Origin: an uncultured Planctomycetaceae bacterium | Lineage (GTDB): Bacteria; Planctomycetota; Planctomycetia; Isosphaerales; Isosphaeraceae | Assembly (NCBI GenBank): GCA_963833985.1 | Contig: CAWIAD010000002.1 | Span: 3,072,001 to 3,136,000 of the forward strand | Length of the DNA: 64,000 nt | Reading direction: 5' to 3' | Shown: in pieces, positions 3,539-32,482 of the stretch | Layout: each line of letters starts with the position of its first letter | Numbering within the stretch: the stretch's first letter is position 1 | Position numbers and translations under genes: made by a program | The notes under the pieces: model-generated | The model's input: only the letters and a program-made list of their open reading frames with translations | What the model was told of the DNA's origin: nothing | Databases searched by the model: none

Positions 3539-3554
3539 TTCCGGCCGCATTCCC

Positions 3555-4433
3555 ATGAGCGAAAGCGACCCTTTATTTATGAATGCCACTGAGCCTCTCA
3601 TCCAGTCCACCCCCGCGCCTTCCGGGGCCGCGGCTCCGGCCGGCGATGTCCCGTCCATGGTCCTCACCACCCGGAGCCTCTCGGTCTGGTATGGCCAGGC
3701 GCTGGCTCTGCGCGAGATCTCCATCGACATCCCGCGGAACAAGATCACCGCGCTCATCGGCCCTTCCGGCTGCGGCAAGAGTACGCTGCTGCGCTGCTTC
3801 AACCGCATGAACGACCTGATCCCCGGCACTCACATGGAAGGTGACATCCGCTTTGACGGCGACCTCATCTCCACGCCCGGCACCGACGCGGTCTCTCTGC
3901 GACGGCGCATCGGCATGGTCTTCCAGAAGCCGAACCCTTTCCCCAAGAGCATCTACAACAATATTGCCTGGGGCGCGCGGATCAACGGCTACCAGGGCGA
4001 CATGGACGAACTGGTGGAGCGATCGCTCCGCCGCGCTGCCCTCTGGGACGAGGTGAAGAACAAGCTCCATCGCTCGGGACTGGAGCTCTCCGGCGGCCAG
4101 CAGCAACGGCTCTGCATCGCTCGCACCCTGGCCGTCGAGCCCGAGGTCATCCTCATGGACGAGCCCTGTTCGGCGCTCGACCCGGTCTCCACGGCGCGCG
4201 TCGAGGACCTCATGGACGACCTCAAGGCCGACTACACCATCCTCGTGGTCACACACAACATGCAGCAGGCGCACCGCGTCAGCGACTTGACCGCCTGCCT
4301 GATGCTCGACGAGACGGTCTCCGCCGACGTTCATCGCACCGGCATCCTCGCCGAGTTCAGCCCCACCGACATCCTCTTCACCAACCCCAAGGACAAGCGC
4401 ACGGAAGCCTACATCACCGGCCGTATCGGCTGA
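3555..4433 (+). CDS. pstB: Phosphate ABC transporter ATP-binding protein
   Basis: Walker [47 protein letters not shown]-terminal YITGRIG. Confidence 0.97.
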
Positions 4434-22557: not shown

Positions 22558-22646
22558 GGGAGCGGGCATCCGCTGGCTGACGATGACGGTTCGCGGTCGG
22601 GCCCACGAATGAAGCCAAGCGGGATTGGCGGACCGTCCGCCGTGGT
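22558..22646 (-). pseudogene. Isolated diverged fragment of the comEC 3' region (metallo-beta-lactamase domain)
   Basis: Encodes HGGRSANPAWLHSWARPRTVIVSQRMPAP versus HGGRSANPPWLYSWAKPRAVVVSQRMPAP at 30039-30127 (24/29 aa identical, ungapped). Confidence 0.9.
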
Positions 22647-22838
22647 CCGGTAAGTTGGTCCCGCCAGGCCATCCAACGGTTACATGTAACAATACAATTA
22701 CAAACATCGTACCAGAGTCACCGTGAAGCGCTTCAGGGCCGCGTCCGTCCCGGCAGCGACGGTCACACCGAGATGGGCATGCTGTCCCCGGAACCCGTGC
22801 AGTCAGGCCCGCGCAGCAAAGCGGCCGCAAACATCGGC

Positions 22839-23243
22839 TCAGCCTGGTAGGAACGCCGAGGGCCGCACGCCGAAGTACCGGGCCAACACGATCACCTGCT
22901 CCTTCGTCAGTGAGCGAGTGCCGTTCATGATGGCCGAGATCGTCGACTGCGTGATTCCGACCCTGGCTTCGAGCATCTTCTGGGTCAGTCCGTTTGCCCG
23001 CATCAGTTCTTTCAGCACGTCGCCTTCGAAAACCTCGCGGGCCGGCTCGTGGACCGCCTCGTAACGCTCTACCAGGTCGGTCAGGGCGTCGAGATACAGC
23101 TCGGTCCCCTTATCCGAAGGGACCCGGAGCAGCTCATCCAGGATCGCCTGGGCTCGCTTCAAGTGCGCATCGTCTCGAATGCTGGCCAGGGGGAAACGTT
23201 CCACGAGCTTGAAGTAACTTGCCGGAGCCGTCTTTACCGCCAT
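22839..23243 (-). CDS. higA: HigA-family antitoxin (HTH-XRE)
   Basis: FPLASIRDD, LDALTDLVERYE, HTH LTQ..L...GITQSTISAIMNGTRSLT; directly downstream of higB. Confidence 0.9.
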   Translation of the reverse strand: MAVKTAPASYFKLVERFPLASIRDDAHLKRAQAILDELLRVPSDKGTELYLDALTDLVERYEAVHEPAREVFEGDVLKELMRANGLTQKMLEARVGITQSTISAIMNGTRSLTKEQVIVLARYFGVRPSAFLPG

Positions 23244-23246
23244 GGA

Positions 23247-23591
23247 TTACTTGCCTTTCTTCCGCTTCGGCGGCGGCTCGTGACACCCGCAATCGTCGAT
23301 CCAGCGCCCTTTGTCGTATTGGGCATGGTCCATCACCTTGAGCACGTACACGATGCCCCTGGCATAGTTCACGCGCCCGATCAAACGGTACCGATTGTTG
23401 CCGACATCGAACACCACGCAGTTGCCCACCGTGCCTGCCGATTGGAATGCTTGCCTGAGCACTCCGAAGTTCGGCCAATCTGCGTTTTCGGTCACCTTGC
23501 GCCAGGTCGATATGTCACGCTCCGCAATCAGCGAATCAGCGCCGCGCGACTCCCAGAACTCGCGCAACCGGCGATTGGAAATAACCCTCAC
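23247..23591 (-). CDS. higB: HigB-family mRNA interferase toxin
   Basis: GTG start with GGAG RBS; RVIS.R.LREFW, VVFDVGNNRYRLI..VNY, H..YDK motifs. Confidence 0.9.
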   Translation of the reverse strand: MRVISNRRLREFWESRGADSLIAERDISTWRKVTENADWPNFGVLRQAFQSAGTVGNCVVFDVGNNRYRLIGRVNYARGIVYVLKVMDHAQYDKGRWIDDCGCHEPPPKRKKGK

Positions 23592-23798
23592 TTCCGTGAT
23601 CTCCTTCCGCACGCCTGGCCGGGCGCGGTAGGTCCTCCGTCGACATTATCGCTGAGTGCGATATTCCAGTCAACCCGAGTATCGCACTGTGCGATCGTCA
23701 TCCGCACGGAGAAATTTGAGAGACATTGGTGTCGGAGAAATTCGTGTCAGAGAGGAATGGCACTCGGATAGTGCAAACCGATCACCCCAACAACACTC

Positions 23799-23876: not shown

Positions 23877-24017
23877 CAGGGGTTACGTTATCCGAGTGCC
23901 AGTCTGAACCGACACCGAATTCCGGACATGAACTAGAGTTTCGGTATGGGCGGTCCACCCCGATGCTGCATTGCGAAGGTGCGATGGACGGTGGCTCGTC
24001 CTTGGAGGAACTGCCCC

Positions 24018-25247
24018 ATGCCTCAGACGGATTTGCCATCTGGGCTAACGCGCCTTGGTTGCTTCTCATGGTGGGCTCGGGTCCTCGTGTTCTCCACCTC
24101 AGCCCTCATCTCGTCGGCAGCGGAGGGCAAGTCGTCTGAAACGACGTTCGCCGAGGTCATCGGCCAGCACTTCCAGGCCTGGGACCTGAATGGAGACGGT
24201 CGGCTCGAGGTCCACGAGATCGACCGCTTGACGTCCGAACCTTCGATCCGAGGCGACGCTGCCGCGGCGCTTGCAGCCATCAAGATTCACGAGCGAAAGA
24301 TTGGCGGGGCGGAGCACCGTAGGTTCGCCCCCGGACTTGACGAGCTCCAGGGCCGTATTGTGAGCGGGCCCCGTCCGATGGTCCCAGCAGGGCCGTTGAT
24401 CACCGGGCCGACCGTGCCATATTCCTATGAGCATGCGTTTCGCCGGCTAAGCGCCGAACTCGGCGCGGTGCCCTCCTTCCTCTTCGCTCACGACGTCCCT
24501 GACTTCGGTGTCCTGCGTCAGGGCTCGATCAAAGACTGCTTCTTCTTCAGCGTGATCGGAAGCATCGCGGCGCTTCGACCACGACGAATCGTCTCGATGA
24601 TCGAGCCCATGGCCGGCGGCGGTTTTGTCGTGCGATTCCCAGATGGGCCCCTGGTCCGTGTGCCACCCGTGACGCAGGCCGAGGCCCTCGTGAACAATAC
24701 GCTCTCCACGCTAGCAGATGGGCTCTGGCCCGTCGTCCTGGAGAAGGCCGTCGGTGAGATCGACCGCGAACATACCACACGCGACCGCCGGACCGCCGAG
24801 CCGACAGACTCTATCGCGCACGGCGGTTCGACCAAGAGGACGATGTGGCTCTTCACCGGTCACGCCTCATACGAGTTCATCCTGCGCCGTCCGCAATACG
24901 AAGCCCGAGACCTGGCCGAGATCCGCCGAATCCTACCGCAGACATTGGAAGCCGGCCGGCTGGCCACCGCATCGATGGGGCGGTACCCGGCCGGCCCGAA
25001 GAAGGTTCCGAAGCTGGGCTACAAGCACGGCTACGGCGTGATCGGCTTCGACCGTCGAACCGACGAGCTTGTCCTATGGAATCCGTGGGGTAACACATTC
25101 ACCCCGAACGGCCCTGAAGGCCTCGAACACGGCTTTATTACCAAACACGGCGTCTTCCGGGTCTCCCTGAAGACGTTCTACGAAAACTTCTCGACTCTCC
25201 ACGTCGAGTCAGCCGAGCTGCTGCCTTCCCGCTACAGAAAGATATGA
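24018..25247 (+). CDS. Secreted calpain-like (peptidase C2) cysteine protease with EF-hand
   Basis: QGSIKDCFF (Cys), W..LEKA, KHGY (His), WNPWG (Asn); EF-hand DLNGDGRLEVHE; GGAGG RBS before ATG 24018. Confidence 0.8.
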   Translation: MPQTDLPSGLTRLGCFSWWARVLVFSTSALISSAAEGKSSETTFAEVIGQHFQAWDLNGDGRLEVHEIDRLTSEPSIRGDAAAALAAIKIHERKIGGAEHRRFAPGLDELQGRIVSGPRPMVPAGPLITGPTVPYSYEHAFRRLSAELGAVPSFLFAHDVPDFGVLRQGSIKDCFFFSVIGSIAALRPRRIVSMIEPMAGGGFVVRFPDGPLVRVPPVTQAEALVNNTLSTLADGLWPVVLEKAVGEIDREHTTRDRRTAEPTDSIAHGGSTKRTMWLFTGHASYEFILRRPQYEARDLAEIRRILPQTLEAGRLATASMGRYPAGPKKVPKLGYKHGYGVIGFDRRTDELVLWNPWGNTFTPNGPEGLEHGFITKHGVFRVSLKTFYENFSTLHVESAELLPSRYRKI

Positions 25248-25426: not shown

Positions 25427-25774
25427 TCAAGAGTAGGGGAGATACTCGACCCGGTTTTGCAGATCGTCCGGGTCGAGGGTTCTGGCAATCAACTCCAGGT
25501 CGCGAACGGCCTGGCCAATGGAAATACCGAACTGGTGCGCGTACACGACGCCAGAGAAAGCCGTCCCTGTTTGCAGACGCCCGTGCGCGATGACCAGCAG
25601 ATCTTGGTCCTGACTGAAAAGCACGCGGCCAGGTGACGTGGCTCGGTCCAGGAGAGGGTCGTCGTCAAGCCTTGCTGACCCATCCTCTTGAGCGGTAAGT
25701 ACGTCCACTCCCCGGTTCCGCAATCCCGCAGTGATCGCCGCAGGCACGTGATGATCCATGTACAGCGATACCAT
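25427..25774 (-). CDS. DUF5615 PIN-like toxin (in frame with upstream DUF433 as sequenced)
   Basis: LYMDHHV....GLR.RGVDV.T, D..LL..AT..GRVL.SQD.D, H/F.GVVY motifs. Confidence 0.85.
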   Translation of the reverse strand: MVSLYMDHHVPAAITAGLRNRGVDVLTAQEDGSARLDDDPLLDRATSPGRVLFSQDQDLLVIAHGRLQTGTAFSGVVYAHQFGISIGQAVRDLELIARTLDPDDLQNRVEYLPYS

Positions 25775-26089
25775 CAGGAGGCAAGACCTTCGAGCCTTGA
25801 TCTTGGCTCGCAGAACGGATTCACTTTGATGTCCCCGGAGATGCTCGACCGCACGCAACTGTTCATCGATGGCTCGATCCATTTCCTCCTGATGGTCGTG
25901 ATAATAGGCCAGGCAACTGTGAATTTGTCCCAGCGTGAGGTGCGGGTGTTGGCGCTGAATCTCATCGGCATCCCAGTGGTGTGCCAGACGATCCAGGGCG
26001 ACCTCAAGAACTTTCGTTTGTGTCCCAATCAGCCAAACTTGACCGTCGGCGCGATTCTCGACGTGAGGGTAGTTGGTCGGAGTCGACAT
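25774..26089 (-). CDS. DUF433 antitoxin
   Basis: AGGAG RBS; I.GT.TKV, EIQRQHPHLTLGQIHSCLAYYHDHQEEMD. The expected stop (TGATG overlap at 25774-25776) is one base out of frame. Confidence 0.85.
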
Positions 26090-26338
26090 GGTTTTCAGCT
26101 CCTGTGGAGGACTCGCACGAGTCCCATGGATATCATACACAGGACGCAACGCCGGGGCATGGCTCGAATCGCAAAGGCCCCGTCTGTCGGCACAGGAGCG
26201 ACAGCGAGATCGGAGCGGCTCGGAACGGGATGCCGCCAGCAGGATTGACCGACCAAGAGTTGCGGGGACGGACACCAAACGCAATTCTTGACGGCATGCA
26301 ACTGGTCTCGGTCCATTTTTCGACGGGACGAGTTACGA

Positions 26339-26434
26339 TCAACGCTGATCGCGCTGATCCAGGAACCCTTCCGTGATGATCCCGTCCGATCGCCATTGTA
26401 AGTGGACGGCCCCGAGTTGCCAGGTGCGCAGCAG
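26339..26434 (-). pseudogene. Second diverged fragment: extreme 3' end of a comEC homologue including its own stop
   Basis: Encodes LLRTWQLGAVHLQWRSDGIITEGFLDQRDQR* versus LLRTWQRGAVHFKWRSDQIITEGFLD of resident comEC (22/26 aa identical, several synonymous changes). Confidence 0.92.
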
Positions 26435-26441
26435 GAGAGAG

Positions 26442-26917
26442 GAGAAATCAGTGTCGAGAAATCAGTGTCAGTTCATTTTTCTGAGAAATCAGTAAAAGAG
26501 AAATCAGCAGAGAGAGAAATCAGTGTCAGTTCATTTTTCTTGACGGAGCAGCAGAGAAATCAGCGTCGAGAAATCAGTGTCAGAGAGAAATCAGGAGAGA
26601 AATCAGAGAGAAATCAGTGTCAGTTCATTTTTCTTGACGGAGCAGCAGAGAAATCAGCGTCGAGAAATCAGTGTCAGAGAGAAATCAGAGAGAAATCAGG
26701 AGAGAAATCAGTGTCAGTTCATTTTTCTTGACAGAGAAATCAGTGTCAGTTCATTTTTTTTGACGGAGAAATCAGGGAGAAATCAGTGTCAGTTCATTTT
26801 TCTTGACGGAGAGAAATCAGTGTCAGTTCATTTTTCTTGACAGAGAAATCAGTGTCAGTTCATTTTTTTTGACGGAGAAATCAGGGAGAAATCAGTGTCA
26901 GTTCATTTTTCTTGACG
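26442..26917 (+). repeat. Array A: ~22 head-to-tail units starting GAGAAATCAG, 9 containing the full GTGTCAGTTCATTTTT core
   Basis: Directly readable. Unit lengths 11-40 bp; higher-order duplications 26514-26607/26608-26701 and 26702-26810/26811-26917. Confidence 0.95.
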
Positions 26918-26941
26918 TAAGCCCGCATCTCGCCGTAACAT
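26912..26941 (+). promoter_or_regulatory. Putative sigma70 promoter for a leaderless RAYT transcript
   Basis: TTGACG (26912-26917, end of last repeat unit), 18-bp spacer, TAACAT (26936-26941); ATG 7 nt later at 26949, no SD. Confidence 0.5.
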
Positions 26942-26948
26942 GGGCATC

Positions 26949-27671
26949 ATGGGACGTCTTCCTCGCGCCACCGACGACGGTCTGGTTTACCACGCGATGA
27001 ACCGCGGGAACAACCGCGCCGACGTCTTCGTCGGCGATGGCGATCATGAGGCCTTCCTCGAGTCGCTCCGGGCTGCGAAGGACCGTTATCCCTTCGCACT
27101 ATTCGGTTATTGCCTGATGAGCAACCACTTCCACCTCCTGCTCAAGCCGAGCTCAGGGCAGTCGATCAGCCGGATCCTCCAGTCGCTCAGCGTGGCCCAC
27201 ACGTGGCGATACCACAAACGGCACCGCACCTCGGGGCACGTGTGGCAGGGCCGCTTCAAGAGCCCGGTGATCCAGGACGATGACCACCTGCTGGTCGTGC
27301 TACAGTACATCGAGGCCAACCCTGTCCGCGCCGGTATGGTCGCCGACCCGAGGGCCTACCGGTGGTCGAGCTATGGCCAGCACGGACTGGGACTGGTTGA
27401 CAAGCTTTTGGACGGTTTCCCCGAGTGGGAGCATCTCGGCCCGTCCGAGGTGGAGCGTAGGCGGCGGTGGCGGGCAAAGCTGCTGTCGGCGCAGAGGCAG
27501 GACGAACTGACAGCGGTACGCGACTCGTTGCGAACCGGACGCCCGCTGGGCTCTCCCGCCTGGGTCGAGGGAGTCGCGACTCGATTGGGCATTAACCTGA
27601 CCCCGCGCCCGCGGGGCCGGCCTCGAAAGGAGGAATCGGCATCGGCCGGAAGTGCCCGAAAAATGAACTGA
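26949..27671 (+). mobile_element. REP-associated tyrosine transposase (RAYT, HUH Y1 family)
   Basis: YHAMNRGNNR..VF, YCLMSNHFHLL (HUH), GHVWQGRFKS, YIEANPVRAGMV (catalytic Tyr), YRWSSY, C-terminal RPRGRPRK. Stop codon lies inside the first right-hand repeat. Confidence 0.93.
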
Positions 27672-28092
27672 CACCGATTATCACGAAAAATGAACTGACA
27701 CCGATTATCTCCCGAAAAATGAACTGACACGCGATTATCAGCCCGAGCAGGACGAATGAAGCGTAGGACTCAACCGGACTCCGCTGGCTCTCCTGGCACT
27801 CGATTGCATCTCTTGACCCCGCGCGCGGGGCCGGCCTCGAAAGGAGCAATCGGCATCGGCCAATGAACTGACACCGATTATCACGAAAATGAACTGACAC
27901 CGATTATCTCCCGAAAAATGAACTGACACCGATTATCTCCTGACACCGATTATCTTCGCGAAAGGAGCAATGGCATCGGCCAGAAGTGCCCGAAAAATGA
28001 ACTGACACCGATTATCCCCCGAAAAATGAACTGACACCACGATTATCCCCGAAAAATGAACTGACACCGATTATCTCGACACCGATTATCTC
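27657..28092 (-). repeat. Array B: ~11 units ending GACACCGATTATC, inverted relative to array A, interspersed with partial copies of the RAYT 3' end
   Basis: Repeated GAAAAATGAACTGACACCGATTATC(TC); 27741-27861 and 27957-27990 resemble 27495-27658. Confidence 0.95.
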
Positions 28093-28196
28093 GCGGAGGA
28101 CGAGTCAGGCGGTGGAACCCTCTAGCAGCCGTGTCTGGCGGGGTTCTCAAGACGATTGATTGCGTGCAATCGGGACTTTGGTCCCAAACGTTCAGC

Positions 28197-28955
28197 TTAC
28201 GAGGCGATCTTGAACCGCTCTGCGAGCAAGTCGAACTCGTTCTCTCCCTGGATTGCCCTCCTCTTGGGAAACCGGATCGGCAGGCTTTCGAGATTCCATA
28301 TCTGGGTCACAATCTCATCCCATGGCAGCGACCCACGCGGCATGGTCGATCGCTGGTCGTTGGGGTCAACGGGTTTGACCCTTAGCACCTGGATGATCAG
28401 AGTGCCGAAGCCGATCGTCATCGCGTACGCGCGGTCGCCTGCCCCTTCTCCCCTCATCTCCAACAGCCTGGCGACGACAAAAGGTCCAGGCGATCCTTCC
28501 CATCGACATACCCACACATGCGTTTGGATAGGAATTGGACGATTCTCATACGAATAGAAGACCGTCCGCTCCTGATCGGTGAACCGCCAGACACCTGGGG
28601 GATTTCTCGTCTCGGAACACATCGCGGTCATCACAGCCCAAGAGGTCAGCAGCTTGCATTCGCAAGCATCGAAAGAGACAGACGAATTCGATAGAAGGGA
28701 CTTGATGAGCGGCTTCGCGCCTTCCTGCAAGCGGCTCATCCATCCAACATTGCAATATTGACAGACGGATCTTACGGTCAGCCTCAGATCAGTGACCCTC
28801 GTGCATAAAACGGGCGAGTTCATGTCTCCCTGGTATTCGAGCGTCCCGTGCCCCTTGAACTCCTTTCGCAGCCAATTAGGGAACACGTGTTCCTCCGAGC
28901 CAGCCTCTTTGCCACAGAAGATGCACTTCTCGGTCGTCGAGTATTTCTTGCTCAT
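28197..28955 (-). CDS. Putative HNH-like zinc-binding endonuclease-domain protein
   Basis: N-terminal CIFC...SEEHVFP.W and VC..CN.GWMS.L(E/Q) pattern typical of HNH-like zinc domains; lower GC than core genes. Confidence 0.6.
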   Translation of the reverse strand: MSKKYSTTEKCIFCGKEAGSEEHVFPNWLRKEFKGHGTLEYQGDMNSPVLCTRVTDLRLTVRSVCQYCNVGWMSRLQEGAKPLIKSLLSNSSVSFDACECKLLTSWAVMTAMCSETRNPPGVWRFTDQERTVFYSYENRPIPIQTHVWVCRWEGSPGPFVVARLLEMRGEGAGDRAYAMTIGFGTLIIQVLRVKPVDPNDQRSTMPRGSLPWDEIVTQIWNLESLPIRFPKRRAIQGENEFDLLAERFKIAS

Positions 28956-29407
28956 CACGTGACCTTGCGAACAAGCTGATCCGTCGATTGAGATTGATTG
29001 TGTGCTGGAACGTGCCGCGAGTGGAATACTTCACCCGCATCTTGAAGCAGCCGAGGTCGTGGCGCGGGAGGGGGATGCGGTCGACTGGAATACAGGGCAG
29101 GCGGCTCCGCTCGATACGCAAGTCCTAACAACTTACGGGAGCGGCATCAAGCGAGGAGGCAGAACTGCCCAACAGGTGAAGTCCGAATCGCGAAACGACG
29201 CTCGTAGGCGGGAAGCGTGGCAAGTCAGCTAAGGAATGCGATCGCGTGATGTTCGTCGCTGACAGAATTTTCATTTATTTTGAAATGTCTGAATCGCCAG
29301 AATCTTCTTGAATCCATCCACGCAGATAGTTGGAATGAATGAACGCTGGTCCAGAGCTAAGTTTGCAGCTCGTAGACTAACTGTAGGACAGTAAGAGGGG
29401 CTTCTGG

Positions 29408-29768: not shown

Positions 29769-29882
29769 GGAATGCTTCGGTGTCAGTTCATTTTTCTGGC
29801 GCAGGAATGCTTCGGTGTCGGAATGCTTCGGTGTCAGTTCATTTTTCTGGCGGAATGCTTCGGTGTCAGATCATTTTTCCCG
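29769..29882 (+). repeat. Array C: 4 units starting GGAATGCTTCGGTGTC with the same core as arrays A/B
   Basis: Units at 29769, 29804 (truncated), 29820, 29852; the last overlaps the comEC stop (29871-29873). Confidence 0.95.
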
Positions 29883-32482
29883 AGGCAGGAGTTGTGGTCC
29901 AGTTTGATGCGGGTGATCCAGGAACCCCTCCGTGATGATCTGATCCGAACGCCACTTGAAGTGCACGGCCCCGCGCTGCCAGGTCCGCAGGAGTGGAATC
30001 CCGCTTCGCTCAAGGGGCATGAGGGCGTCGCTCGTCCCGGGGGCGGGCATCCTCTGGCTAACCACAACGGCTCGGGGTTTGGCCCAGGAGTAGAGCCAGG
30101 GAGGATTGGCGGACCGTCCGCCATGGTGGGGGGAGAGCATCAGGTCGATGGGCTCGGGCTGAGCCTGGGCGACCAGCTCGACGAGGCCGAGCTGGTCCAG
30201 GTCGCCGGTGAGCAGGAGGTGGTGGCCAAGGTGCTCGACGTCGAGGACCAGGCTGCGGGCGTTGTCGGGCGTTTCCGGGTGCCAGCCCCGAGGCGGATGG
30301 AGCACCGTGAAATGAACGGTGGCCTGGGTCCACTGCCGCGGCGCGGCAATGGTGCGGATCGGAATGCGCCGGGCCCGGAACTGATCCAGCAGCAAGGTCA
30401 CGCCTGGGTTTTCCTCGGTCTCGGTCACGAAGCCAGCCGGGAGGACCAGCTCGCCGACCTGGAAGCGGTCCAGCAGGTCGGGAATCCCGTTGTAGTGGTC
30501 CTGGTCGGCGTGGCTGAGGTAGATGGCGTCGATCCGAGCGATCCCGCGTGACCAGAGCGCCGGGGCGATGATCCGCCGCCCCACGCGCGGGTCGCCCATG
30601 CGCCCGCAGTCATAGAGCAGGGTCCGGCCGTCGGGCAGATGCAGCACGACCGCCAGACCGTGACCGATGGCCAGCAGATCGCCTTCGAGCGTTCCGCCCG
30701 TTCGAGCCGGTGAACCGAGCAGCCAACCGGGAAACGTGCAGGCCGGCACGGCCAGCCAGAGGAGGAACCGCCAGAATCGCCAGCGCGGAATGAGGCCCTC
30801 CAGTGCGCACGCGGCGCTGGCGACCGTCGCCAGCAGGAGCAGCAGGTAGAAGACCGCGACGGTGACCCAGGTCGGGCCGGGCACGAAGACGTATCCCCAC
30901 GGCTGGGAGGCACCCCAGCGGACGATCTGCTCCGAGAGCCGCAGCAGCAGATCGGCGGCATGCACCGGCACGCTGGCCAGCGGGCTCCAGATCGCGCCCA
31001 CGACCATGCCCCCGGCCCCCAGCAGCAGGGCCAGCGAGGTGAACGGGATGAGCGGGATGTTCAGCAGGACGCCGATCGGTGAGACGAGATGGAACCGCAG
31101 CGCGACCAGCGGCAACGCGGCCAGCCAGACGACCGCGGAGGTGAGAAGGCCCCTGCCCAGCCAGGACAGGGCCCAGTCCAGACGCCTTCGCCAGCGCGGC
31201 TGATACGTACGCTTGAGCGCTTCGATGGCGTCAGACGGACGTTTGAGCATGGTCTTGACCGTGGAGACGATCTCCCCGAGCAATCCCCGGGCCATGGGGA
31301 CCAGCCAGAAGAGCGCGGCGATGGCCAGGAAGGAAAGCTGGCAGCCAACGTCGAACAGGAAGAACGGGTCCCATGCCAGGGTGAGCAGGGCGGCCAGTGC
31401 CAGGGTGTTGGCCGGCGCGAGGACCGTTCGACAATCGCGGCCAGGCAGAAGGTGAAAGTCATGACGGCGGAACGCACCACCGAGGGAGCCAGGCCAACCA
31501 GGAGGGCGTAGCCCACGGTGCCGGCAGCCACGCCGCCGTAAACCAGCCGGCGCGGCAGGCCCAGCAGGCGCAAAAGCAGGCCGAGTGCGACGGCCAGGAT
31601 CTGGATTTGAAGGCCCGAAATCGCCAGCAGGTGGGTGGTGCCGGTGCGGGCGAAGGCGTCGTTGGTCTCCGGATCGATGTCCTCGCGCTGGCCGAGGATC
31701 AGGGCTGAGGCCAGAGGCGCGGTACGTTCGTCGAGCGGAGCGACGAGACGGTCGCGGCAGGCGGCCCGCAGGTCACCCAGCCAGCGGTGCAGGGGCCACG
31801 CCTGGCCGTCGGGATTGACCGCAATTCCCGAGCCCTGGTCGACCGTGATGCGCAGGCGAATCCCCCGCGCCCGCAGGTACGCGCGGTAATCAAACTCGCC
31901 GGGGTTGAGCGGTCCGGCGACCCTGGAGAGCTGACCGGCCAGCTCGACGGGCTGGCCCGCGTGCAGGTCGCTCCGGTCGGCCGCGACGGTCACAAGAACG
32001 CGGCAGGAGACGTGGCGCCAGCGGCTGCCGTCGCAGACCGCGGTGAGCTCGACCTCCAGGCGCGTGAGAATGCGCTCGGGGTCCCCGGGGCCATAGCCTG
32101 TTGCGCTGCGGGTGCCCAGCGTTTCGGCGATGACTCCGCGTGCCCAGACCGCCTGGCTGGCCTCGCCGACACTGCTGCTCACATCGTCATCCGGCAGGTC
32201 GTTCCAGCAGTGGTGGTGCCAGCCCGCGGCCAGGGCCAGGATGGCCGCCAGCATGCTCGCCCGCGAGCCCAGCGCGTGACGCAGGGCCAGGCAGGCGACG
32301 GTGGAGGCGGCGAGGGCCAGGCCGGCCCAGGTTTCCGTAGCCAGGGAGCCAAGATGGCGATCGATGATGATTCCGCAGGCGAACGCTGCCAGGGCCGGAG
32401 CCAGCGGTGCGATCGACACGCAGGGGCGCTGCGAATCCTGGATGGCTGCCAGCGGATCTGGAGCGCTCAGGGAACCGTGCAC
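29871..32482 (-). CDS. comEC: DNA uptake competence protein ComEC/Rec2 (DUF4131 + competence + MBL domains); frameshift ~31420
   Basis: NPGEFDYRAYL, TGTTHLLAISGL, PSVVRS in ORF 31061..32482; GCQLSF, GHGLA, YDCG, SHADQDHYNG, LTGD, PHHG in the 29871 frame. Confidence 0.93.

Follow-up and report, generated by a model that had tools for sequence, protein, structure and literature searches.

Introduction

HUH enzymes cleave DNA to leave a 5'-phosphotyrosine link and a 3'-OH that is able to prime synthesis or to attack that link (PMC8266576). The model drawn for BIMEs in Escherichia coli proceeds from a nick through extension of the 3'-OH and attack on the tyrosine-5'-phosphate to the addition of a unit (PMC3333891, Fig. 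7B). TIRtrons/TIRYTs, named in 2013, are RAYT-like genes flanked by terminal inverted repeats (TIRs) that have no relation to REPs; their TIRs occur as singles, dimers or clusters and some contain a GGGGWSAS motif (PMC3733652). TIRYTs were later tentatively equated with TnpA-Y1 subclass 2.1 (PMC6006769), which corresponds to RAYT group 1 (PMC5581495). Subclass 2.1/group 1 is the largest RAYT group, occurs in about 15% of sampled species (PMC6006769) and has the highest duplication rate among RAYTs, 6.2% (PMC5581495).

Here we analyzed a RAYT-like gene enclosed by two inward-facing repeat arrays in a 64,000-nt stretch of DNA (the window) from an uncultured Planctomycetaceae bacterium. A preliminary description of the locus had proposed a candidate undescribed element type; the type was in fact already described in 2013 (PMC3733652) and, judged from its sequence, the element is a TIRtron/TIRYT and thus of a known kind. 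The pattern of start points in the arrays likely marks where the enzyme nicks and rejoins DNA.

A minimal element of about 800 bp between amplified ends

The features of the locus are as follows, in window coordinates.

26316-26434, minus strand: displaced 3' tail of comEC, 75% identical to the present tail and cut off where array A begins
26441-26916, plus strand: array A, with 22 nested left-end re-copies that each begin at the outer 10-mer
Just 5' of about 26884-26885, plus strand: predicted nick, at the start of the left TIR and the contig divergence
26885-26911, plus strand: innermost left TIR, composed of the outer 10 nt (26885-26894) and the 17-bp core (26895-26911)
26912-26941, plus strand: sigma70-like promoter match (consensus match only), -35 at 26912-26917 and -10 at 26936-26941 with an 18-nt spacer
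26949-27671, plus strand: 240-aa HUH Y1 transposase (PF01797, NF047646) with TIRYT/RAYT group 1/subclass 2.1 motifs
27658-27685, minus strand: innermost right TIR, core 27658-27674 over the stop codon, outer segment to about 27685
27658-28093, minus strand: array B, 11 re-copies of the right end with the same inward polarity as in A
29769-29884, plus strand: array C, a solo array of four units with its own outer segment

The anatomy first read from the letters was confirmed. Arrays A and B flank the gene with seven exact copies each of a 17-bp core in opposite orientation, identical at 17/17 positions on both sides. The innermost A unit supplies the -35 match, and the innermost B unit contains the stop codon (27669-27671). 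Each repeat of about 27 bp, a 10-nt outer segment followed by the core, forms a stem of at most 4 bp and folds no better than shuffled sequences. The array units have no GTAG foot; the single GTAG sits in a degenerate copy of the gene.

Between copies, homology ends about 10 nt outside the core, and contigs assembled from sequencing runs X2 and X4, each of a different study, part ways at 26884-26887. In its basic form the element is thus a minimal unit of about 800 bp (26885-27685) with imperfect TIRs of about 27 bp. The same genome harbors a second full copy, 96.4% identical in nucleotides, with the same inverted arrays and different flanks, as well as solo arrays, a 3' fragment and a copy that is truncated at its 5' end and carries an array. 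Five copies with 95.8-98% identity lie at different sites in genome G009, and copies with 92-98% identity occupy unrelated sites. Homologues are present in all 13 other genomes of the genus, and the close relatives belong to Isosphaeraceae and other Planctomycetota. A search of phages gave no match. Plasmids gave 12 records, all under 60% identity; in Skermanella the gene is kept at one site in three species, on complete plasmids, with a single left TIR in one species and arrays in two. Sequencing runs with matches contained small shares only, and no RNA run was listed.

The inverted-array layout expected of homologues was found in part. Counting homologues of at least 52% identity with enough flank, our own copies included and very short stutters uncounted, left ends carry one repeat in 18/40 cases, two in 7 and three or more in 10, with none found in 5. 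Right ends carry one repeat in 16/32, two in 1, three or more in 7 and none found in 8. Since many homologues end in single TIRs, an array is a condition that the ends may be in and does not define the type.

The repeat does co-vary with the protein, as the preliminary description had anticipated. A motif-anchored TIR pair was recovered in 52/94 elements, and the 17-bp core tracks the transposase (Mantel r 0.35, p 0.001), with 16.4 of 17 core positions shared at 70-85% protein identity and 8.2 below 35%. The outer 10-mer is loosely kept, with 5.2/10 positions in common between both ends of an element. The GGGGWSAS motif is matched with one mismatch in the right TIR and two in the left; 41/52 homologous left TIRs are within one mismatch. 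The 10.16-Mb genome contains the exact 17-mer core 36 times, confined to 6 clusters; a relaxed setting gives 11 repeat clusters. An 18-mer was found in 18/100 other genomes of the family, while its reversed control pattern was found in 0/101 genomes.

Two further observations concern these repeats. In several genomes (L026, L009, L120, L285, L276 and, in our own genome, C2:4727520, L299) a repeated element resembling a group II intron interrupts the TIR core at one and the same position, and at the last of these sites a reverse transcriptase gene adjoins it. From its end features we take this insertion to be a group II intron. Similar short duplications also lie at the end motifs of other, more distant Y1 families of the genome (C1:3168200, C2:2547556-2547730, C2:2585562-2585947, C2:3035151 and C2:2426842), including a multi-copy family whose protein is about 24% identical to this transposase.

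The transposase

The transposase matches PF01797 (E 6e-16) and, barely above the cut-off of 80, NF047646 (80.9 bits). Its predicted catalytic residues, H60-F-H62 and Y120, are intact; both histidines are present in 130/130 aligned proteins and the tyrosine in 129/130. The motifs read NHFH59, WQ99, YIEANP120 and WSS139, with a distance of 60 from HuH to Tyr. Because a single-sequence fold reached a pLDDT of 43 it was discarded in favor of a model based on alignment A1 (pLDDT 90). The closest structure to this model is E. coli TnpA-REP (4ER8; Foldseek E 1.4e-8; Z 16.1, rmsd 3.1 over 157 aligned residues), followed by the TnpAs of ISDra2 and IS608. The C-terminal part is composed of three helices and a GRP-containing tail that is present in 59/61 close homologues. 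This tail is AT-hook-like near residues 219-228, with an AT_hook match below the Pfam cut-off. No Pfam HTH matched the protein even at E 5, and none of the structural matches listed was specific to the C-terminal domain, the Atlas giving only unnamed clusters.

Array units are inward copies that start at a fixed distance from the core

In arrays A, B and C, each unit repeats a prefix of the end of the element itself, read in the inward direction, and the same holds for arrays from other genomes. The units are thus nested prefixes, not repeats of equal length. In array A, nine units span the 17-bp core, seven of them exactly, and higher-order blocks of 94 nt and 109 nt are found within the array. 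Two units of array B extend into the 3' end of the gene, 27955-28016 and 27740-27882. The latter copies the last ~200 bp of the gene with 17 small deletions and only 4 mismatches, an error pattern that resembles poor consensus more than decay; the precise number of units in array B may therefore depend on the assembly. The innermost unit of array C overlaps the comEC stop codon.

To place the copies, we collected exact tandem duplications of 8-259 nt that touch a core from loci L001-L239 and three stretches of our own genome. Of 122 listed, 11 were set aside (ten with 8 or more nt of an extra partial copy, one on an opposite-strand core). The remaining 111 come from 45 loci; the start lies 8-14 nt 5' of the core in 105, most often at 10-11, and elsewhere in 6. 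These events are not independent, given kin genomes and block copies, and the loci were chosen through the core motif. The preference persists when duplications from other genomes only are counted (84/90), when one event is taken per array (27/29 vs 6.1 expected) and when duplications of at least 30 nt are considered (28/28 in -14 to -8 vs 4.9 expected), the uniform-start null being rough for short units. Where the junction has zero overlap, 46/60 start at -12 to -10. The offset is fixed across unrelated outer 10-mers, and polarity is inward at both ends.

The other boundary of the copies behaves differently. The duplications are 8-255 nt long and run inward; their ends are not fully random, with clusters at +1 and +5/+6, and zero-overlap cases spread to +129. 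Mean overlap at the junctions is 0.70 nt (n=92) vs 0.63 in simulations without homology, and lies below the 2.18 nt of 91 non-TIR duplications of our own genome (p=1e-8). Across 58 junctions, all four bases were seen both at the 3' end of the copy and 5' of the start. A copy at C2:4723795 that is truncated at its 5' end has been re-copied through its truncation into unrelated DNA, in units of 189 and 255 nt, showing that copying follows whatever lies inward, in place. Contigs of runs X7 and X2 link points lying 427 and ~500 nt within the gene to a TIR start; these joints, one contig each at 85% likeness, hint at re-copies of 427 nt and ~500 nt.

The same offset recurs where the element meets foreign DNA. 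We examined 162 flanks, setting aside false core matches (L001_-, L034, L262, L273), with L229 ambiguous. Nine flanks with an uninterrupted counterpart break off, by eye, about 9-14 nt outside a core, and element boundaries and flank junctions thus share the start offset of the duplications. Around homologues below 52% identity, complete Skermanella plasmids included, 33/73 duplications lie at this offset; the other 40 are not anchored in this offset range, many of them because the search pattern missed their end motifs or because they are chains, and some being unrelated.

A model for array growth

A fixed 5' start combined with variable 3' ends made without homology is what HUH cleavage, polymerase extension and ligation would be expected to produce. 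We estimate a probability of about 0.7 that the TIRtron transposase builds the arrays in this way, by a nick 10-11 nt outside the core, polymerase extension inward and rejoining of the 5' end. The HUH transposase would nick about one helical turn outside the TIR core, on the strand that reads from outer segment to core. A host polymerase would then extend the free 3'-OH of the flank inward, and the displaced, enzyme-bound 5' end would be ligated to the newly made 3' end. As there is neither a hairpin nor a base rule, the position of the cut would be set by its distance from the bound core and not by sequence. The core would be recognized without a hairpin, probably as duplex DNA and with help from the AT-hook-like tail. 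Each cycle would add one unit of whatever length had been copied, later cycles copying several units, and the short copies that end at +1 to +6 may reflect a bound enzyme that blocks the polymerase.

Joining of the same end to foreign 3' ends would give junctions free of target site duplications, solo arrays and new insertion sites, and would explain the unrelated flanks and the missing target duplications. On this model, the arrays are likely what abortive or one-ended transposition has left behind, and solo repeats can probably be acted on in trans by the enzyme. The earlier proposal of a RAYT subfamily that acts on TIR-like, re-copied ends thus gains support, by inference, from repeat/protein co-variation, fixed start and inward polarity.

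Collinear flanks were found at 0/46 paired ends and no empty site was found among them, a weak test since most flanks lack an uninterrupted counterpart, and some pairs were mis-paired. One 9-nt direct repeat (L264) among the 46 is within chance for that number of tries. Homology-assisted, one-ended insertion was considered as a general route; direct repeats across the element were found at 9/101 loci vs 6/300 random windows. A clear displaced gene tail at a junction was found in this window and at L293 only, so we reject the general route and keep homology-assisted insertion as an anecdote. At L293, on an Iodobacter plasmid, the 3' region of hipA is present as a 95%-identical direct-repeat copy into which the right TIR is joined, in a layout that matches that of array A and the comEC tail.

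Alternative explanations for the arrays

The same fixed cut might also operate while the units come from exchange between molecules, be it with sister chromatids, at the replication fork or with an incoming element that becomes joined into a resident end. Inner repeats with a sequence unlike that of the outer one were seen at one syntenic Skermanella site, which suggests that some units derive from another copy and not from local re-copying. Sub-variants inside single arrays (e.g. L218, L225 and L233), the head-to-tail stacking of different TIR families behind comEC tails and the described ties of related Y1 enzymes to replication forks point in the same direction. Nevertheless, we consider exchange an unlikely source of most units, as opposite ends are both amplified at one locus, unlike what a leading/lagging-strand rule implies (a rule that is itself ruled out on this ground), and most arrays are homogeneous, each copying its own inward neighbor even past a truncation. 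Ordinary replication slippage or unequal recombination at the purine-rich ends, with the enzyme uninvolved, has far less to recommend it: it would suit the low complexity of the outer segments and the higher-order blocks of array A, but not the strict polarity, a start offset that holds across unrelated outer 10-mers, or junction overlaps that are at chance and below those of the genome's other duplications.

Very improbable, too, is that a domesticated, single-copy RAYT keeps and spreads the arrays as REP/BIME-like repeats for a host function. In its favor, these genomes contain dispersed solo arrays and TIR dimers, the gene is retained at a single site in three Skermanella species and group 1 is described as mostly single-copy (PMC5581495). 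Against this stand repeats that lack a hairpin or GTAG and form no more than 11 clusters in the genome even at the relaxed setting, and a gene that is present twice here and five times in G009 with different flanks, broken copies besides. Least credible of all is an origin of the arrays in misassembly of collapsed or noisy reads. The deletion-only error pattern of one B unit and the frameshift that splits comEC in the window show where such errors may lie, yet the pattern is also found in complete plasmid records, JGI metagenome contigs and Logan contigs, and a 105-nt contig of run X1, which may be the source sample and not independent, matches array A without differences. Assembly could account for single units, not for the phenomenon. 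Re-copying in place by the transposase remains our preferred reading.

Displaced comEC tails and neighboring genes

Array A is joined into the displaced comEC tail listed above, which ends about 13 nt outside a core; a worn TIR lies at 26301-26319. Within the window, sites with comEC tails are found at 22558-22794, 26301-26434 and 29769-29990, and a TIR of a second family (22777-22794) faces the third tail. Stacks of this type were seen elsewhere in the genus as well (G010:C3 24-63 kb, L270-L272; G002:C29/C19/C6; G012:C9; G007:C95; G009:C49/C14). In these stacks displaced tails are separated by 1.5-10 kb of variable cargo. We counted 2-15 comEC-tail matches in 8/13 other genomes of the genus; outside it, 6/107 genomes had 2 matches, several of which are split genes.

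Prophages are reported to integrate in comEC (PMC4260502). In our set, 23/37 tails start at PHHGG codons behind a conserved in-frame hydrophobic arm, and this fixed start argues for att-site integration. The stacks are best fitted by att-site integration through a recombinase acting in trans. No PF00589 or PF00239 integrase was found inside the stacks of five genomes, the exception being fragments ~3 kb from a lone tail at G002:C52. Reading the conserved arm upstream of the tails as a sigma54 or dif site was dropped after comparison with the consensus by eye. The TIR core follows 16/41 comEC ends vs 0.13% of random windows, and TIRs of other Y1 families often follow comEC ends too. A role for the TIR enzyme in adding cargo to the stacks is possible. 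At L031 (G009:C49, ~3553-3722) a gene piece of ~140 bp is bounded on both sides by outer TIR ends, with junctions about 11-14 nt outside the core each, and looks like a captured fragment.

A bolder reading would make TIRYTs a distinct HUH chemistry, with duplex binding of a hairpin-free repeat, a sequence-independent cut one turn away, ligation to any 3' end, re-copying of their own tips, movement that leaves no target duplication, stitching of foreign DNA onto resident repeats and cassette stacks built free of integrases, the comEC tails stacked around this element among them. We consider the full set unlikely. If true, the stitching of foreign DNA by TIRYTs would be an undescribed route of gene capture.

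The surroundings of the repeats show further features. The comEC gene of the window (29871-32482) is split into two overlapping frames that divide the Competence domain, either as a pseudogene or through a sequencing frameshift. Toxin-antitoxin or Fic genes lie within ~750 bp of 5/7 TIR sites examined in our own genome (raw count): HigBA and DUF433/DUF5615 in the window (22839-23612 and 25427-26100, counted as one site), and DUF433/DUF5615, PIN, Phd and Fic at other sites (L296, L298, L299). Such genes are found directly upstream of the transposase in 5/5 plasmid loci (L290-L294), three of which are orthologous. A worn TIR stutter (23700-23753) adjoins higB. The cargo between the repeats includes a 433-aa calpain-family peptidase (23946-25247, plus strand) and a 253-aa ORF (28197-28958, minus strand) with CxxC motifs and no Pfam or NCBIfam match, which by eye is presumably HNH-like.

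Comparison with known systems

The element resembles TIRtrons in its RAYT-like gene between non-REP TIRs that may overlap the ends of the gene, in its GGGGWSAS-type motif and in having single, dimeric and clustered copies of the TIR elsewhere in the genome. The accessible text on TIRtrons (PMC3733652) mentions neither re-copies that are nested and polar nor a fixed offset, a site of cutting or mobility of the whole unit. With subclass 2.1, whose published motifs are NH[YF]H, W[EQ]/FQ, YIELNP-like and SS, it shares the NHFH, WQ, YIxxNP and SS motifs, a length of 240 aa (~238 aa in the class), the spacing of 60 between HuH and Tyr and the absence of REPs (PMC6006769); assignment to subclass 2.1/group 1 rests on these motifs and the length. 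An HTH domain is present in the 20 TIRYTs assigned to 2.1 (PMC6006769); none was found here by Pfam and the protein ends in the AT-hook-like tail instead, so that subgroup 2.1.1 is more likely than 2.1.2, which has a C-terminal HTH (Bac_DnaA_C, HTH_23, HTH_28). Group 1 is mostly single-copy in the published survey (PMC5581495), whereas several genomes carry multiple, IS-like copies of this clade.

The fold closest to the modeled transposase is that of the REPtron enzyme TnpA-REP (4ER8). REPtrons appear immobile (PMC3333891), and a test of the element as a REPtron (RAYT groups 2/3) found no high-copy, GTAG-footed palindromic REPs in its flanks. The BIME model needs a hairpin with a GTAG foot, C|T sites and a second cleavage that yields whole units (PMC3333891); the element studied here lacks both the hairpin and a base rule, and its copies have a distance-fixed start and ragged ends. 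With the TnpAs of IS200/IS605 (IS608, ISDra2) it shares the Y1 HUH fold, and no consistent target duplication was seen. Members of that family have asymmetric subterminal hairpins, cut sites selected by guides and a Y---Q motif (PMC8266576, PMC6006769), unlike the symmetric inverted repeats and the Y---NP motif of this element.

Our literature searches, which covered sources other than subscription papers, found no account of polar arrays or of the biochemistry of TIRYTs or group 1, and neither the anatomy of the arrays nor the inferred cut site appears to have been published. The arrays would serve as a natural map of the cut site: a hairpin-free substrate of 27 bp, cut 10-11 nt 5' of the core with no base rule. 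As they predict substrate, position and indifference to base, the activity is directly testable. Overall, a small Y1 enzyme with its cut placed at a set distance and with any 3'-OH as a joining partner would be unlike both IS608 and TnpA-REP, and cutting set by distance would account for the ragged arrays in the Planctomycetota genomes examined.
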